From a virus, in the IMG/VR virus record IMGVR_UViG_3300042445_000711, positions 11,569 through 75,568 of that record: DNA of 64,000 nucleotides; one strand, written 5' to 3'. How positions within the stretch are numbered: position 1 is the stretch's first letter; every line of letters begins with the position of its first letter. Shown piece by piece: positions 9,745 to 17,266 of this stretch. A model generated the notes under the pieces. That model did no database searches. It had not been told where the DNA came from and saw only the letters and a list, made by a program, of their open reading frames with translations. The position numbers were made by a program, and so were the translations under genes.

Positions 9745-10959
9745 CTATATTTGTTCTTTAAAATAAATATCCCATTCTTTTAAATAATCCCCAATATAGA
9801 CATTTCTTTTTTTATCTAATAATTTAATAAAATTAATAAATTTATCCATTCCGTTTTCTTCTTCATTAGAATATAATTCCGTTTTTAATCGTTCTAATTC
9901 AAACTCATTTAAATGATTAATATTATTTAAAAGTTGTTCTTTTAATTCATCTGATAAAATAGAAACGTGTTGAAAAGATGGGTGATGAACATAATTATGA
10001 GCTACAACTAAATTATATTTGTTCGTAAATTCTTTAAATTTATCTATGTTAAAAACATTCAAACAACTAACAGTTTGACAAACTTCTAATTTAAATATAT
10101 TTCTATATTTTATAATTTTTAAAAAGTTTTTATATATTATATCCCATTTTGCACCATATCTAATATAATCATTTCGTTCTTCCAAATCATCAATAGATAA
10201 ATGTAATCTTACTTGTTTAAATTGTTTCCATATTTTAATAAAATCATCTGGAATATCCGTCATATTAATAGAGTAGTGTAAATTTATATCTTTAGACCTA
10301 CCACTATCAATTAATTTTTGTAGAAAATAACCATGCTCTCTAATTAACGTTGGTTCACCACCATTAATCCAAACTTCTTCTAATTTAGAACACTTTTCAT
10401 ATAATTCATCATAAAATCTTGTACTTCTAAACCATTCGGTTCTAATATCACATTTAAAATAATTTTTTTCAAATTCAGTTCCTTTAAATACGGATACATC
10501 TTGATTCCATCTATTACTACTAAACGGATTACAAGTTACACATTTCAAATTACAAACAGTACCCAATCTTAATTCAATATATCGATAATCTAATTCTTTT
10601 AATGAACCATCTTCATTTGTATTTGCATATGCATGGTCTATTAAATGTTTAAATTTAAGATTACTTTCCATTCGTTTACTGTACACATTATTTTTTTCGT
10701 GGAAATAACACGTTTTGCATTGTGATGGAAAATCTCCATTAATCATCTTCTTACGAACATCATTAAAATTTTCAGAATTTGTAATATCTGATAGTGAATC
10801 TTTATCTAAAAATAAATTAAATCCATCTTTTTTAGCAGTACTCATATCATTTGTCATATCGGTAATACAACAAGGAGTTGATGTTCCAATTGGATGTGTA
10901 GCCAAATGTATAAATGGTAATGTACAAAACGGTTTACCGTCAAATTCTGGATTTTTCAT
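9745..10959 (-). CDS. Radical SAM enzyme with N-terminal twitch-like Fe-S domain
   Basis: CNLKCVTC, GGEP; N-terminal C..PF.H...CC and CKTC. Confidence 0.9.
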   Translation of the reverse strand: MKNPEFDGKPFCTLPFIHLATHPIGTSTPCCITDMTNDMSTAKKDGFNLFLDKDSLSDITNSENFNDVRKKMINGDFPSQCKTCYFHEKNNVYSKRMESNLKFKHLIDHAYANTNEDGSLKELDYRYIELRLGTVCNLKCVTCNPFSSNRWNQDVSVFKGTEFEKNYFKCDIRTEWFRSTRFYDELYEKCSKLEEVWINGGEPTLIREHGYFLQKLIDSGRSKDINLHYSINMTDIPDDFIKIWKQFKQVRLHLSIDDLEERNDYIRYGAKWDIIYKNFLKIIKYRNIFKLEVCQTVSCLNVFNIDKFKEFTNKYNLVVAHNYVHHPSFQHVSILSDELKEQLLNNINHLNEFELERLKTELYSNEEENGMDKFINFIKLLDKKRNVYIGDYLKEWDIYFKEQI

Positions 10960-12308
10960 TACACTAACGGATTTAATTCTATACTATTCCACCATTCTAA
11001 TAAAGGTGGATATTGAGCATATATTTCTTCAATTTTACCTAAATTATTTCTGTGTTTATCAATTTGTTGTAAACCTTTTTTTCCTCTAATTAAACCTTCT
11101 TTCCAATCAGGATACTGTTCTTGAAATGTTTGTTTATTTTTAATATCTTCAAAACAAGTAACATAATTTTGTATTTTTGGATTATATTTTGCTTTTCTTT
11201 TTGCGTATTCAATAATATCATCCAATATTGGATTTAAAATATCTCTTGGTATTACCATTGGAGACATCATAATACTACTATCAAATGCAAATGTTGTTTT
11301 AATTAAAGTATGCACATCTAATTTTGCCGTAATATCAATCATTTCTTTCATTGAAAACAAACCAGGAGCAGTTACTGTTAAATCAAATGCAATTGCGTAA
11401 TCTCCAAATTGTTTATTTAAAAACAAACCATTTTTAAAATTTTCAAACCATTGCTCCCATTTTATACCATGTCTTACATATTCAACTATATCACCAATAC
11501 CATCTATACTTGCGCATATCTGAACACCTTTAAAATGTGGTAGTAAATCGTACAGGTTAGTACCTTTAAACGATGTTCTACTTAAATTGGTGTTATACCT
11601 TACTATCACATCTTTTGATTGACCAGAATCAACAAGCTGCTTCATAATATCCCAATGAATATCCCACATCAATGGCTCTCCTCCAACCCAATAAATTTCT
11701 TCTATTCTTTTTTCATTTACGGCATCCCAAAGTTCTTTCTCCGCAACTTCTGTTTGAAATTTTTCTATTATTGGTTTGAATTGCTTTTGTGCCCAAGCAT
11801 CACCACCTTTATCATAGTTTCCTAACATTCTATTTTCAGCTTCCCATGAAGATGATAATTGGTCACCACACATTCTACATTTAAAATTACAACGATTACT
11901 GATTCTATAATCAAATGATATTGGTTTCATTTCAGTATATCCTTCATCATTTGTTTTTTCAAATGCTTCTTCAATTTTATTAGGAAATAATGTTTTAGTA
12001 AAGTAATCTCTATAAATGTGTATGTTTAGTAATTTATTATTACAAACCGCGCATTGTGGTATTTCTTCACCTGCCATTAATTTTTTACGAATATCCATCA
12101 TATATGGACTGTTCCAATGTTCATCTAATGTTGCAGGTGAATACTCTGAATTAGTATCTGCTTTTTCTGAATCAATATATTGAGTTGCCCAAGTTGCTTT
12201 TTCACGACTTGCACAACACAACCTTCTTTCACTTTGAGGAGAAAGATAGGTATGTGTAAATGGTGCTATACAAAAAGTCTTATTACCCTCTGATGGTTTT
12301 ATTTTCAT
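10959..12308 (-). CDS. Radical SAM enzyme with N-terminal twitch-like domain
   Basis: CNFKCRMC, GGEP, NTN, SIDG; N-terminal CIAPF.H...CC and CAVC. Confidence 0.9.
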   Translation of the reverse strand: MKIKPSEGNKTFCIAPFTHTYLSPQSERRLCCASREKATWATQYIDSEKADTNSEYSPATLDEHWNSPYMMDIRKKLMAGEEIPQCAVCNNKLLNIHIYRDYFTKTLFPNKIEEAFEKTNDEGYTEMKPISFDYRISNRCNFKCRMCGDQLSSSWEAENRMLGNYDKGGDAWAQKQFKPIIEKFQTEVAEKELWDAVNEKRIEEIYWVGGEPLMWDIHWDIMKQLVDSGQSKDVIVRYNTNLSRTSFKGTNLYDLLPHFKGVQICASIDGIGDIVEYVRHGIKWEQWFENFKNGLFLNKQFGDYAIAFDLTVTAPGLFSMKEMIDITAKLDVHTLIKTTFAFDSSIMMSPMVIPRDILNPILDDIIEYAKRKAKYNPKIQNYVTCFEDIKNKQTFQEQYPDWKEGLIRGKKGLQQIDKHRNNLGKIEEIYAQYPPLLEWWNSIELNPLV

Positions 12309-15226: not shown

Positions 15227-15885
15227 TAATAAATTATTTTATGTAAAAAGTTGCAATTATGTGAATTATCAAAAACTTTATAATCGGTATGTTTTTTAAA
15301 ATTATATAAACCAATTATAGATGTATCTAAATTACCATCTTCCTTAATATTATATATCTGATTATAAGATTTATATTCTTTTGAAATCATTAAAAAATCT
15401 AATTCGTAAGAACAATAATTTAAGTTAAATCCATTATGTGGAAAATTACCACCACCAAACAAAATATGTGGTTCATATCCAACACTTAACTCTTCATCAT
15501 ATTCTAACTTATATTCTATAGCAGATATGTCATTAACTAAAAAATCTAATATACGATTTACTTTATTATATCTAAACGATAATAAATTAAAATCATAACC
15601 AATTTCTGTTTCAGAAAATAAATATTTCCATTCGGTTTCTCCGTTTTTATTTAAATTGAGAATCAACATTAAATTATTGTTTTCTTTCTCAATATCTAAC
15701 CCCATATAATTTGGAAGTTTTGCAAATACTGTTTTTTTTTCTGATGATTTTGTTAATATTTTTATGTTCATAGATAACGTAAAATCAGTATCACCCTCAA
15801 AAGTTTTACCAATCTCACCCGTATTTATTCCATATGAAACCATATTTGGCCATAACAACCAAGGTTCTCCTTCTTTAATTATCAT
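15226..15885 (-). CDS. Stand-alone LamG/concanavalin-A-like beta-sandwich protein
   Basis: FTLSMNIK, FRYNKVNRILDFLVND, IIGLYNF...DNS; pattern matches the inserts in the two GT7 proteins. Confidence 0.5.
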   Translation of the reverse strand: MIIKEGEPWLLWPNMVSYGINTGEIGKTFEGDTDFTLSMNIKILTKSSEKKTVFAKLPNYMGLDIEKENNNLMLILNLNKNGETEWKYLFSETEIGYDFNLLSFRYNKVNRILDFLVNDISAIEYKLEYDEELSVGYEPHILFGGGNFPHNGFNLNYCSYELDFLMISKEYKSYNQIYNIKEDGNLDTSIIGLYNFKKHTDYKVFDNSHNCNFLHKIIY

Positions 15886-17266
15886 ATTTGATTTTTTTAT
15901 AAAACTCCTCTAATTCTGGAAATGTTTTTAAGAAATTAGTTCCTCTTCTTTTATCATGCTCATCTACAAATTTTACGAAATCTTTTCTATTTGTTTTTAA
16001 AATATTTGCATCCGTTTTTGATAATGACCAATCATATATTCGTTTTATCTTTTCGGTTTCAACTTCGGTCATTCCCATATGAGTATTTGTAAAAATTGGA
16101 ACACCTAAATATAAAGCAGTTTTAGCATTATCTAATATAAGTTCTTTTTGTTTATCAAATAATAATTTAACACTTTGGTGTTGTGGAAATCTTAAATAAG
16201 ATGTATCTAATAATATAGGATGTTGCCAATATCTTTCTAAATTTTGATGTTCTTTTTTGGTTTCCCAAACTTTTTCTATTAACTTATTATAACTAAATGG
16301 ACTTAAAATATTATAAGTAGACATTATGGTTATTGTAACTTTTGGTAATTTATAAAGTACTTTGTTTACATTATCCCAAAATTTATTAAAATTCAAACCA
16401 TTACGAATATATTCAGCTTGTTCACCATATGCATCAACTGATGTAAAAATAATAACTTCTTTAATTCTATCTTCCGAAATTATTCTGTCTAATTTTTGAA
16501 TTAATTTATCAATTAGTTCATCGGTAACTCCTAAATTTGAATTAATTGCCAATTTTAATTCTTTGTTTGGATTTGGGTGTTCTAATATATAATCCAAAAC
16601 TTTCCAAGTATCTTTTGATAAAAGTGGTTCTCCACCGGTAATTCTAAATGTATTTAAATCAGAATATAATTCAGGCCACCATTTCCAAAATGCTTCAACA
16701 AAAGGATTGTATTCACTTTGTAATATTGGCAATCTATTTTTTTCAATTAACTTACCGTAACTGTTAAATGAATCTGTAGTTGGATACCCTCCTAATTGTT
16801 TTACTTCTTGCAACCATTGTGATGAATATTCAGGTCCACAATATGAACACTTAAAATTACAAGTATTAGAAAAACTAACTTCAACATATCTTGGATTAAA
16901 ATCCGCTCTCCAATCTGATTGTATAATTTCATCTAAATGTGGTTTAGACCAGGGTTCCGATGATTTATAAATTCTATCGGAATAATTATCCGAATTATCT
17001 TCAATATTCCAACAGTAATCACATTCTTCTGGTCTTTTACCATCTAACATTTCTTTTCTCTTATACTTTTTAAATTTAGTATTATGAAGTGCGGATGGAT
17101 TTCGTTGTATTTCTGCTATTGGAATTTTATGAGCAGTTGGGTGGTGGCAAGAGTGATTAAGACCAGTTTGTAAGTGCATGGTTACCTGTGTCCATTTTGC
17201 TAAACAAAACCCACAACCTACTGAATCTAAACTTTTTTTTGTTTCTTCAAATATATTATTTTGCAT
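15875..17266 (-). CDS. Radical SAM enzyme with N-terminal twitch-like domain
   Basis: CNFKCSYC, TGGEP; N-terminal CLAKW...SCHH and CDYC. Confidence 0.9.
   Translation of the reverse strand: MQNNIFEETKKSLDSVGCGFCLAKWTQVTMHLQTGLNHSCHHPTAHKIPIAEIQRNPSALHNTKFKKYKRKEMLDGKRPEECDYCWNIEDNSDNYSDRIYKSSEPWSKPHLDEIIQSDWRADFNPRYVEVSFSNTCNFKCSYCGPEYSSQWLQEVKQLGGYPTTDSFNSYGKLIEKNRLPILQSEYNPFVEAFWKWWPELYSDLNTFRITGGEPLLSKDTWKVLDYILEHPNPNKELKLAINSNLGVTDELIDKLIQKLDRIISEDRIKEVIIFTSVDAYGEQAEYIRNGLNFNKFWDNVNKVLYKLPKVTITIMSTYNILSPFSYNKLIEKVWETKKEHQNLERYWQHPILLDTSYLRFPQHQSVKLLFDKQKELILDNAKTALYLGVPIFTNTHMGMTEVETEKIKRIYDWSLSKTDANILKTNRKDFVKFVDEHDKRRGTNFLKTFPELEEFYKKIKYDN

Follow-up and report, generated by a model that had tools for sequence, protein, structure and literature searches.

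BtrN, the 2-deoxy-scyllo-inosamine dehydrogenase of the butirosin pathway, acts on a sugar-like substrate. Its structure combines a radical SAM core with a twitch domain that holds a [4Fe-4S] cluster through four cysteine ligands (PDB 4M7S/4M7T). Auxiliary Fe-S domains of the same superfamily are found in the SPASM/twitch peptide maturases, such as PqqE (with its partner PqqD), SkfB and anSME, and most of the characterised SPASM/twitch enzymes have peptide substrates. Sugar carbons can also be edited by radical SAM enzymes once the glycoside has been assembled, as exemplified by the sugar epimerases and dehydratases NeoN, HygY and AprD4 of aminoglycoside pathways, which act singly on small secreted antibiotics. 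NeoN is presented as a radical SAM epimerase in the account cited here (PMC10991966).

In aquatic T4-like myophages, a hypervariable island in the structural region was termed the "host recognition cluster" (HRC), and in pelagimyophages it was found to contain numerous glycosyltransferases beside tail fibres and genes for sugar nucleotides (Zaragoza-Solas et al. 2020, PMC7029224). Radical SAM cassettes were noted there as a variable part of the HRC between close genomes, and it was suggested that the islands alter the O-chain of the host and not the virion; the radical SAM family, its gene order and its LamG partners were not part of that analysis (PMC7029224). The window studied here (the whole stretch of DNA that was analysed, 64,000 nucleotides) comes from an uncultured marine T4-like phage. 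It resembles an HRC in its T4-like baseplate, primase and gp46-like genes, its low G+C and a tail fibre beside the island, whereas the HRC landmarks VrlC and gp14 were not located.

Between 9745 and 17266 on the minus strand lie five radical SAM genes (R1–R5), all in the same direction, together with a stand-alone lectin-fold gene:

15875-17266, minus strand: R1, core subfamily, 463 aa; NF033640 350.8 bits, E 1e-105
15226-15885, minus strand: LamG-like protein of concanavalin-type lectin fold, stand-alone, 219 aa
13658-15226, minus strand: R2, 522 aa; NF033640 303.6 bits, E 2e-91
12305-13657, minus strand: R3, rare subfamily, 450 aa; NF033640 223.2 bits, E 6e-66
10959-12308, minus strand: R4, "C..PF.H..CC" type, 449 aa; NF033640 315.9 bits, E 4e-94
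9745-10959, minus strand: R5, "C..PF.H..CC" type, 404 aa; NF033640 328.1 bits, E 8e-98

The five proteins had been described from the sequence as paralogues with an N-terminal twitch domain, and an NCBIfam profile search bears this out: all of them match NF033640 (N_Twi_rSAM, "twitch domain-containing radical SAM protein") end to end with 223–351 bits, above its curated cut-off of 170 bits, and exactly these five members were obtained when the entire virus record (75.6 kb) was searched. NF033640 is a bioinformatic definition whose model does not separate the five deep subfamilies described below. No paper or biochemical study giving this family a substrate or a reaction was found in the literature, in agreement with the preliminary description, which knew of no characterised substrate. 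The other paralogues are 23–37% identical to R1, and the genes are tightly spaced, with junctions of 0, -11, -1, 0, -4, -1 and +3 nt.

The alignment also supports the motifs that had been read from the sequence. Seven cluster cysteines are invariant in each of R1–R5, R3 included, namely C21, C40, C82 and C85 in the N-terminal domain and C136, C140 and C143 of the CxxxCxxC motif (R1 numbering); GGEP (211–214), D438 and R441 of the D..R motif are invariant as well. All five are thus full-length family members with intact cluster ligands. In R5, Pfam places a SPASM domain at residues 12–85 and Radical_SAM at 133–310. The N-terminal 80–90 residues of the family align to BtrN 167–258 with the four cysteines in register (E 1.7e-5). 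However, the domain order is permuted, as the twitch domain follows the core in BtrN, and outside the cluster motifs no sequence similarity to BtrN was detectable. At 400–520 aa the R1–R5 proteins are also larger than BtrN (about 250–270 aa), adding a large helical C-terminal region, and they occur, unlike BtrN, in multi-paralogue arrays with lectin-like partners. The N-terminal position of the auxiliary domain likewise sets them apart from the SPASM/twitch peptide maturases.

The two subtypes proposed earlier, C..PF.H..CC and C..KW..SCH[HR], were recovered in the alignment, and each matches one of the two clades that lie deepest in the family tree. R4 falls in the second deep clade and R2 forms a separate clade with both viral and bacterial members. 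Altogether R1–R5 represent five deep, ancient subfamilies and not recent duplicates, and viral as well as bacterial members are present in every one of them. The R1 clade comprises 132 non-redundant members; only three non-redundant relatives of R3 were present among the loci.

An AlphaFold2 model of R1 (pLDDT 96.2) adopts the radical SAM fold with SkfB as the top structural neighbour (Z 14.6). BlsE (Z 13.3), viperin and MoaA, which are sugar or nucleotide enzymes, follow within about 2 Z units, so the fold does not discriminate the substrate. NeoN, HygY and AprD4 showed no specific sequence or fold similarity (AprD4 Z 6.5), and, in contrast to these single enzymes, R1–R5 form a five-enzyme phage cassette. 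Weaker NCBIfam matches were obtained to the peptide maturases mycofactocin, SCIFF, HxsB/C and WgkB, and weaker HMM or fold matches to the nucleotide enzymes MoaA, viperin and QueE and to the nucleoside-sugar enzyme BlsE. The latter group would fit enzymes that turn a free nucleotide sugar, or a nucleotide, into an unusual donor for subsequent transfer by a glycosyltransferase. Four arginines conserved throughout the family (R70, R98, R288 and R441) would suit a phosphate or carboxylate handle on such a substrate, and epimerase/dehydratase and TPP enzymes are encoded in the same island. Nevertheless, we consider a role in making precursors quite improbable, as a small soluble substrate would hardly account for a LamG module that is fused to R1 and shared with GT7 enzymes, and PqqD partners in bacteria point to macromolecules.

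The 219-aa LamG-like protein has no Pfam match of its own. Its family profile could be aligned with the Laminin_G_3 domain inserted in the neighbouring GT7 enzymes (hhalign probability 99.6%, E 8.7e-25), and a PDB profile search matched it to the CBM40 lectin domain of the sialidase NanB (E 8e-4). In three related phages (L023, L026 and L019) the LamG-like protein and R1 are fused. The lectin-fold gene pointed out within the array is therefore homologous to the GT7 insert and a genuine partner of R1. A lectin-type module common to the GT7 enzymes and the partner of R1 favours a shared macromolecular acceptor over a free sugar nucleotide. Against a glycan, however, counts that proteins, too, can be ligands of LamG-type modules.

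The array lies within an island with the following further genes:

22919-26353, minus strand: tail fibre or tail spike of 1144 aa that has an intramolecular chaperone domain at its C-terminus
21933-22922, minus strand: conserved 329-aa protein, first gene of the cassette, at the same position in 13 viral loci
21132-21899, minus strand: Methyltransf_24-type methyltransferase (Pfam PF13578, E 1.5e-10)
20287-21135, minus strand: probable GT-A glycosyltransferase (GT92/GT2-like), 282 aa, with conserved DDDE and HHFKWD motifs
20102-20290, minus strand: conserved helical protein of 62 aa, three genes upstream of the array
17267-18682 and 18679-20112, minus strand: two GT7-type glycosyltransferases, each with Pfam Glyco_transf_7N, Glyco_transf_7C and Laminin_G_3
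8716-9741, minus strand: SGNH-like protein; its family profile matches GDSL proteins in PDB (E 5.5e-5)
7625-8716, minus strand: "TEK..KP" family member, aligning to cluster 3 at 98.5% probability
6526-7632, minus strand: second SGNH-like protein, aligning to the SGNH family at 97.6% probability
5756-6529, minus strand: PhyH-family Fe(II)/2-oxoglutarate dioxygenase, encoded at the end of the minus-strand operon (Pfam PF05721, E 4e-18)
558-5759, plus strand: convergent sugar-nucleotide arm with a "TEK..KP" protein, two epimerase/dehydratases (NAD-dependent), a GDSL protein and a TPP enzyme represented by its pyrimidine-binding part

These flanks agree with the preliminary description for GT7 (two copies) and PhyH by Pfam and for SGNH-like proteins (two copies) by profiles. 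Its GT10-like assignment gained no support: the proteins at 7625-8716 and 558-1745 gave no fucosyltransferase match and form one conserved family with the motif ES...TEK..KP. Both GT7 genes lie directly upstream of R1. For the probable GT-A enzyme, neighbours in the ESM Atlas (0.96–0.97) carry Glyco_transf_92 or Glycos_transf_2, which is a lead and not a proof, and no sequence match was found in PDB. The position of the methyltransferase is kept in 23 loci; the 329-aa protein has no Pfam match. The tail-fibre gene is immediately upstream of the cassette, its product showing Peptidase_S74 at residues 1046–1098 (Pfam, E 4e-5) and PHROG matches of the C-terminus to virion and tail proteins. Pfam identified Epimerase (E 8e-40 and 2e-41), Lipase_GDSL and Transket_pyr in the plus-strand arm, whose families recur beside radical SAM arrays at other loci.

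No membrane-like hydrophobic segment is present in any of the 23 proteins encoded from 558 to 26353, so modification of a soluble acceptor in the cytoplasm fits better than export. This bears on the possibility that the cassette tailors glycans of the host envelope, with O-antigen or surface polysaccharide rewritten during infection and superinfection by competing phages blocked. O-antigen conversion by phage-encoded enzymes is well established, and an O-chain role is what was proposed for the glycosyltransferase-rich HRC (PMC7029224). However, no membrane protein, flippase, polymerase, priming transferase or GT-C enzyme is predicted among the 23 island proteins, and, because radical SAM enzymes need a reducing cytoplasm, an envelope edit would have to precede export and rely entirely on host machinery. 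Such a function thus appears improbable.

The preliminary description had also seen no room for a peptide precursor. This is correct inside the array, where no ORF of at least 60 aa lies between the radical SAM genes. However, the conserved 62-aa ORF is found just upstream; homologues occur in 26 of 32 GT7-type loci but in no locus of another type. In its product about 45 aa form a conserved core, whereas the tail varies, and there is no Pfam match.

The association with glycosyltransferases extends well beyond the window. The order R1-(LamG)-R2-R4-(R4)-R5 recurs in many viral contigs, and a glycosyltransferase is directly upstream of the R1-type gene in 63 of 99 phage cases, either the GT7-LamG type, there as a pair (25 loci), or "cluster 1" (38). 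Cluster 1 has a GT-A fold (AlphaFold2 pLDDT 92) with Foldseek matches to SunS, WrtF and TarP, and its closest likeness is to the peptide S-glycosyltransferases SunS and ThuS. The arrays recur with NDP-sugar epimerases, UDP-glucose dehydrogenase, DegT aminotransferase, carbamoyltransferase, SGNH proteins and methyltransferases, and a tail-fibre-like gene was also found upstream in another viral context. Among the carriers of the radical SAM genes is a cultured phage, Ralstonia phage RsoM2USA. The surroundings in phages are thus glycosyltransferases and not the peptide-export and protease genes that accompany SPASM/twitch maturases. Both the glycosyltransferase linkage and the LamG partnership proposed earlier hold.

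Bacterial loci gave a partly different picture. In five Bdellovibrionota loci (Bacteriovoracaceae/Bdellovibrio), the R2/R1-type genes have PqqD-family proteins as direct neighbours (Pfam E 7e-12 and 3.5e-9), and these loci also contain ABC-2 transporter genes and proteins with the prepilin N_methyl motif. Flagellin genes adjoin radical SAM genes in seven loci. Glycan genes are a minority among the 148 bacterial neighbour proteins (five GT2 and three epimerases). Neighbours of a peptide type, which would speak against a glycan system, therefore do occur in bacteria through the five PqqD loci, whereas the phage arrays are linked to glycosyltransferases.

The pairing with PqqD-type chaperones keeps a protein or peptide substrate in play. 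The radical SAM enzymes would then be maturases that cross-link, epimerise or oxidise C-H bonds of amino-acid residues in a surface filament protein or peptide, a tail fibre in phages and pilin-like proteins or flagellins in Bdellovibrionota, with neighbouring glycosyltransferases decorating the same protein and LamG (phages) or PqqD (bacteria) presenting it. The flagellin and prepilin-type neighbours, SkfB as top fold match, the weaker maturase matches, the likeness of cluster 1 to SunS and ThuS and the 62-aa ORF within the cassette are consistent with this. On the other hand, the window and those phage loci whose gene clusters were scanned yielded neither a PqqD/RRE domain nor a recognisable precursor gene, the bacterial PqqD genes are not accompanied by a conserved small precursor gene, and no modifiable residue is conserved in the tail of the 62-aa protein. 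Moreover, sugar-nucleotide and sugar-tailoring genes dominate the phage islands, and the best alignment of the auxiliary domain is to a dehydrogenase of the sugar type, BtrN. We regard this role as rather unlikely.

Our tentatively preferred reading, which might be correct but falls short of probable, is that the R1-LamG-R2-R3-R4-R5 cassette edits, by radical chemistry, a sugar decoration on a phage structural protein. The PqqD neighbours and the SkfB match as peptide-type precedents, together with the modest share of glycan genes in bacteria, count against it. The enzymes would act in the cytoplasm of the infected cell alongside the glycosyltransferases encoded just upstream, on a macromolecular glycoconjugate in which the two GT7-LamG enzymes and the GT92/GT2-like enzyme might have placed the sugars; the obvious candidate for the acceptor is the tail fibre, whose gene immediately precedes the cassette. 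By analogy to BtrN, each enzyme would cleave SAM at the CxxxCxxC cluster, the 5'-deoxyadenosyl radical would take a hydrogen from a sugar carbon, and the fully Cys-ligated N-terminal twitch cluster would then accept or return an electron. The outcome may be ketone oxidation, epimerisation, dehydration or a similar edit, with a different step possibly carried out by each subfamily, and the LamG-like module would bring to R1 the acceptor it shares with the GT7 enzymes. If this is true, a sugar decoration would be edited by radical chemistry within one multi-enzyme phage cassette.

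The window carries five genes for N-terminal-twitch radical SAM (rSAM) enzymes, here called R1 to R5, within a string of minus-strand genes that begins with a tail-fibre gene and ends with a PhyH dioxygenase gene. A plus-strand arm of sugar-nucleotide genes converges on this string. The features of the island are the following (window positions).

22919-26353, minus strand: tail-fibre gene, start of the minus-strand gene string
20102-20290, minus strand: ORF of 62 aa
17267-20112, minus strand: pair of GT7-LamG glycosyltransferase genes
15875-17266, minus strand: rSAM gene R1
15226-15885, minus strand: LamG-like ORF of 219 aa
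13658-15226, minus strand: rSAM gene R2
12305-13657, minus strand: rSAM gene R3
10959-12308, minus strand: rSAM gene R4
9745-10959, minus strand: rSAM gene R5
5756-6529, minus strand: PhyH dioxygenase gene, end of the minus-strand gene string
558-5759, plus strand: sugar-nucleotide gene arm, convergent with the minus-strand string

Junctions from R1 to R5, including those with other genes of the array, abut or overlap (-11 to +3 nt), and ORF calls of at least 60 aa found no ORF between the rSAM genes. Counts in a promoter and terminator scan equalled the shuffled expectation, so that operon boundaries could not be drawn, and a tRNA scan found no tRNA genes in the window. The virus record, of which the window is a part, measures 75.6 kb and is estimated to be about 40% complete. 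The G+C content of 21-33% across the window, the completeness estimate and the presence of T4-like primase, gp46/SbcC-like nuclease, baseplate-wedge and carbamoyltransferase genes point to a large uncultured aquatic T4-like myophage.

All five proteins matched the NCBIfam family NF033640 (N_Twi_rSAM, "twitch domain-containing radical SAM protein"; curated cut-off 170 bits) with 350.8, 303.6, 223.2, 315.9 and 328.1 bits for R1 to R5, in alignments of near full length (model positions 1-4 to 391-398 of 398). A genome-level search of the virus record with the same model returned exactly five members. The general Pfam Radical_SAM model scored three of the five proteins above its gathering score and two below. 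R2 to R5 are 23-37% identical to R1, and all five have kept CxxxCxxC, GGEP and a C-terminal D..R pair. C21, C40, C82 and C85 precede the CxxxCxxC cysteines C136, C140 and C143 and are invariant across R1 to R5. In a family alignment of 101 members, the CxxxCxxC cysteines and three of the N-terminal ones are invariant, and C40 is kept in at least 90%. The motifs and the two subtypes that the preliminary description had proposed for the five paralogues were thus both seen in the alignment. Its account of the flanking genes was borne out for the GT7, SGNH-like and PhyH genes, whereas the profile of the gene described as GT10-like gave no PDB sequence match to fucosyltransferases.

Residues 18-109 of the five-paralogue profile align to residues 167-258 of BtrN in the PDB (E 1.7e-5), with four cysteines in register, which identifies the N-terminal domain as a genuine twitch domain ahead of the catalytic core. 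The four aligned BtrN cysteines are, as we take it from the published structure, its auxiliary cluster ligands. BtrN-type dehydrogenases, which oxidise a secondary alcohol of a sugar or cyclitol substrate, carry the twitch domain C-terminal of the core, whereas it is N-terminal in all five window enzymes; the BtrN-type auxiliary cluster is fully ligated by four cysteines, and R1 to R5 likewise have four at the aligned positions. An AlphaFold2 model of R1 (pLDDT 96.2, pTM 0.94, 101 homologues) matched the folds of SkfB (Z 14.6), BlsE (13.3), viperin (12.6) and MoaA (12.4), with many others at 10-12. Foldseek and VIA-align comparisons with the PDB yielded no specific structural relative of R1, only the generic radical SAM core, a partial TIM barrel; with PFL-AE, the best matches (SkfB, BlsE, viperin and MoaA) lie at Z 12-14.6, and many radical SAM structures superpose at Z 11-14.6. 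As far as this predicted structure goes, the radical SAM fold does not separate sugar, nucleotide and peptide substrates.

To place the array within its family, 80 viral loci and 76 genome loci that carry an R1 relative were collected, their ORFs were called, and these were searched with the five-paralogue profile. Between two and eight rSAM copies occur in 101 of 157 loci. With one member as query, at least 7,977 protein clusters from metagenomes and more than 550 viral contig stretches were found. In a maximum-likelihood tree of 320 non-redundant members, the window genes fall into five separate deep clades, which rules out a recent tandem duplication; the two deepest clades correspond to the two motif subtypes. 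Viral and bacterial sequences are mixed in four of the five clades, and the R3 clade is rare, with three non-redundant members and no bacterial sequence. The order R1-(LamG)-R2-R4-(R4)-R5 recurs in phage loci (for example L016, L017, L049, L063, L071, L079 and L141). Together, the deep clades and the recurring order indicate that the array is an old set of different enzymes in fixed order. Neighbouring enzymes can also be fused, as shown by an 846-aa ORF (L069:12707-15247, plus strand) in which two N_Twi_rSAM domains, both complete, score 732 bits over two stretches.

The LamG-like ORF had no Pfam match. It forms one family with a 245-aa protein family found at the same position in other phages, and the profile of this family matches the Laminin_G_3 insert of the GT7 enzymes (hhalign, 99.6% probability, E 8.7e-25) and the lectin domain of sialidase NanB in the PDB (E 8e-4). 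By these profile comparisons the 219-aa protein is predicted to belong to the Laminin_G_3/concanavalin-like lectin fold. In three related phages the LamG module is fused to the N-terminus of R1, in one copy (L023, L026) or in two (L019), and the N-terminal extension of L023 aligns over its full length to the free LamG-like family (E 8.8e-20). These fusions indicate that the module works with R1. The GT7 enzymes contain this module as well, so that in the simplest reading these transferases and R1 would recognise the same large acceptor. Elsewhere in the window, among structural genes, a 1636-aa protein (34862-39772, minus strand) gave a weak Laminin_G_3 match under the Pfam cut-off (E 3e-4); it may be another fibre or a VrlC-like protein with the same type of lectin module.

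Clustering of 2,609 neighbour proteins across the loci revealed two viral contexts around the rSAM arrays. The window-type order is a 329-aa conserved protein, Methyltransf_24, a GT92/GT2-like protein, the 62-aa protein, two GT7-LamG enzymes, R1, the LamG-like protein and more rSAMs. In the other context, a tail-fibre-like gene is followed by five conserved unknown genes, cluster 1 and then R1. Immediately upstream of R1 in 99 phage loci, cluster 1 was found in 38 and GT7-LamG in 25. Cluster 1 has a conserved VDGDN motif and was modelled by AlphaFold2 (pLDDT 92) with a GT-A fold, for which Foldseek gave SunS/ThuS, WrtF, TarP and others as matches; neither cluster 1 nor cluster 11 had a PDB sequence match. 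Most of the conserved phage neighbour clusters (1, 2, 4, 5, 13 and 14) match no Pfam family and at most a PHROG of unknown function.

The small 62-aa ORF, three genes upstream of the array, is preceded by the GT92/GT2-like gene and followed by the first GT7 gene. Among the loci, homologues were confined to the GT7 type (26 of 32), and two loci (L021 and L022) have two tandem copies. The core of the protein is helical and spans about 45 aa (..KVKALEKIANSLDALT.WFEEIDK.EWS.R.QYYL.E.H). Its tail is short and variable and contains no conserved residue in the family alignment; several tails close with PKDPTIDG. Roles as regulator, adaptor or substrate are conceivable.

Among the cultured phages of the collection searched, DNA and protein searches found homologues only in Ralstonia phage RsoM2USA (MG752970.1), where all are annotated as "hypothetical" and are not mentioned in the paper on this phage. 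It has two single rSAM copies (L001 and L002, in genes 347-350 and 199-203). A cluster-1 GT-A gene stands on either side of one copy, in a gene block shared with uncultured phages that follows closely on the genes for the tail sheath and a confirmed virion protein. The other copy has three SGNH-like genes as flanking genes and a carbamoyltransferase in its vicinity. It can be stated firmly that the window array is an intact, conserved, multi-enzyme radical SAM cassette coupled to glycosyltransferases and a lectin-like adaptor, beside fibre genes.

Other genes recurring in the rSAM islands encode NDP-sugar epimerases/dehydratases, UDP-glucose dehydrogenase, DegT aminotransferase, carbamoyltransferase and SGNH proteins, as well as parts of TPP enzymes, a B12-radical SAM protein and other radical SAM proteins. 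In the window, a NodU/Nol-type carbamoyltransferase gene (49349-51043, minus strand; PHROG 1601, E 1e-122) lies about 32 kb off the array; this type shares a locus with the rSAM array in 26 other loci and is an immediate neighbour in several. That the enzymes synthesise unusual nucleotide-sugar donors is unlikely in our estimation.

Regarding the site of action, none of the 23 proteins encoded between 558 and 26353 reaches the hydrophobicity of a membrane helix in any stretch (Kyte-Doolittle 19-residue mean, maximum 1.49), and no flippase, polymerase, priming transferase or GT-C enzyme was found in the island. Judged from its sequence, the sugar island looks cytoplasmic and soluble. Directly upstream of the cassette lies the gene for a fibre of 1144 aa that bears a Peptidase_S74 domain, an intramolecular chaperone. 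The lack of membrane segments and export enzymes, together with this fibre, favours a cytoplasmic decoration of a soluble acceptor, which might be a virion protein. Our tentative first choice, rated somewhat short of an even chance, is that the enzymes carry out radical editing of sugars on a macromolecular glycoconjugate, probably a virion protein, in which the four-Cys twitch cluster would relay electrons as in BtrN. The same glycan chemistry might instead be aimed at the host envelope, a role that has been proposed for pelagimyophage islands (PMC7029224); we consider this unlikely.

Genome matches of the family, aside from phage-like contigs binned into MAGs, belong mostly to Bdellovibrionota. 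At least one member above the cut-off was present in 31 of 151 sampled genomes of one carrier's phylum (about 1 in 5). Two Bdellovibrionota genomes, reached via L103 and L115, have extreme numbers: a 1.9-Mb chromosome (G001:C1) carries 17 above-cut-off copies in three clusters (792-803 kb, 1068-1092 kb and 1531 kb), and a 4.5-Mb genome more than 20 (G003:C1:745-775 kb). The bacterial contexts are mixed, with GT2, PMT_2-like GT-C, UGM-like flavoprotein, DegT, carbamoyltransferase, ABC-2 transporter, flagellin (7 loci), prepilin-motif proteins and further radical SAM/SPASM genes. Other radical SAM genes are the commonest named class among 148 bacterial neighbours; glycan genes come next, yet are few (5 GT2, 3 epimerases). 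DNA hypermodification is given low weight: the genes around the bacterial homologues are of GT2, GT-C-like, DegT, ABC-2 transporter, flagellin and pilin-like types, and none for nucleotide modification was found among the neighbour families scanned. In two Bdellovibrionota loci (L131:5863-8202 and L142:4615-6945, both minus strand), an rSAM carries, fused to its C-terminus, about 320 aa of the unannotated cluster 41 family, which also occurs as a separate gene adjoining rSAM genes in other loci of this group.

Radical SAM maturases work with PqqD proteins as peptide-binding partners. Five loci from Bacteriovoracaceae/Bdellovibrio MAGs have a PqqD-family gene that immediately adjoins an R2- or R1-type gene (Pfam E 7e-12, 3.5e-9).

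L152:5424-5726: PqqD-family gene
L154:5646-5936: PqqD-family gene
L134:9537-9875: PqqD-family gene
L131:2643-2930: PqqD-family gene
L142:1403-1732: PqqD-family gene

Also encoded in these loci are ABC-2 transporters, a TPR protein, a GT2 and large proteins that contain a prepilin N_methyl motif. The PqqD neighbours keep a protein or peptide substrate in play, so that the carrier protein itself, and not its sugar, might be modified; however, no conserved small precursor ORF was found beside the bacterial PqqD genes, and this alternative is rated as doubtful, although with appreciable weight. In RiPP-type maturase systems PqqD/RRE is fused or adjacent, whereas the window proteins scanned contain no PqqD match. 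Such systems also have a neighbouring precursor peptide gene that encodes a conserved leader and a modifiable core; a small conserved ORF near the window array, the 62-aa gene, has a variable tail free of conserved residues.

Returning to sugar editing, a more elaborate and somewhat improbable version can be outlined, to be taken as a whole. LamG adaptors, as free proteins or as fusions, would hold a glycosylated fibre while four or five rSAMs, in fixed order, edit its glycan serially by successive C-H functionalisations, possibly with cross-links, yielding an undescribed class of radically edited protein glycans. Such glycans might tune host recognition or shield the virion from defences, and predatory Bdellovibrionota would apply the toolkit, in up to about 20 copies per genome, to pili and flagella.

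In a study of pelagimyophages, an island of fibre and glycosyltransferase genes was named the "host recognition cluster", and radical SAM cassettes were noted, without analysis, as a variable element (PMC7029224). The published cluster, a variable island inside the structural module, is bounded by VrlC and gp14 (PMC7029224). The window island adjoins a tail fibre and has several glycosyltransferases, with baseplate genes downstream, and would be a candidate for such a cluster. The literature searched, also for Bdellovibrio and phage radical SAM arrays, yielded nothing on the function of NF033640, which as far as this search shows has been catalogued and never assayed. What this analysis adds is the LamG-GT7 homology and the fusions of LamG to R1, the rule of a glycosyltransferase upstream of R1, the result that no island protein has a predicted membrane segment, and the PqqD partners and extreme copy numbers in Bdellovibrionota.

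The window cassette is taken to be a set of twitch-type radical SAM tailoring enzymes, whose chemistry and target are now testable. LamG fusions and PqqD partners point to concrete test substrates, and the cultured phage RsoM2USA offers a test system. To our knowledge, NF033640 is among the larger of those radical SAM families that have no known reaction, and solving the reactions would widen the range of reaction types in radical SAM enzymes. Four or five different enzymes in fixed order, linked to glycosyltransferases and lectin-like adaptors, suggest multi-step radical chemistry on a surface glycoconjugate, and we know of no such pathway described for phages. If the virion fibre is the target, host recognition by the ocean's most abundant myophages would be tied to an unexplored glycan chemistry.
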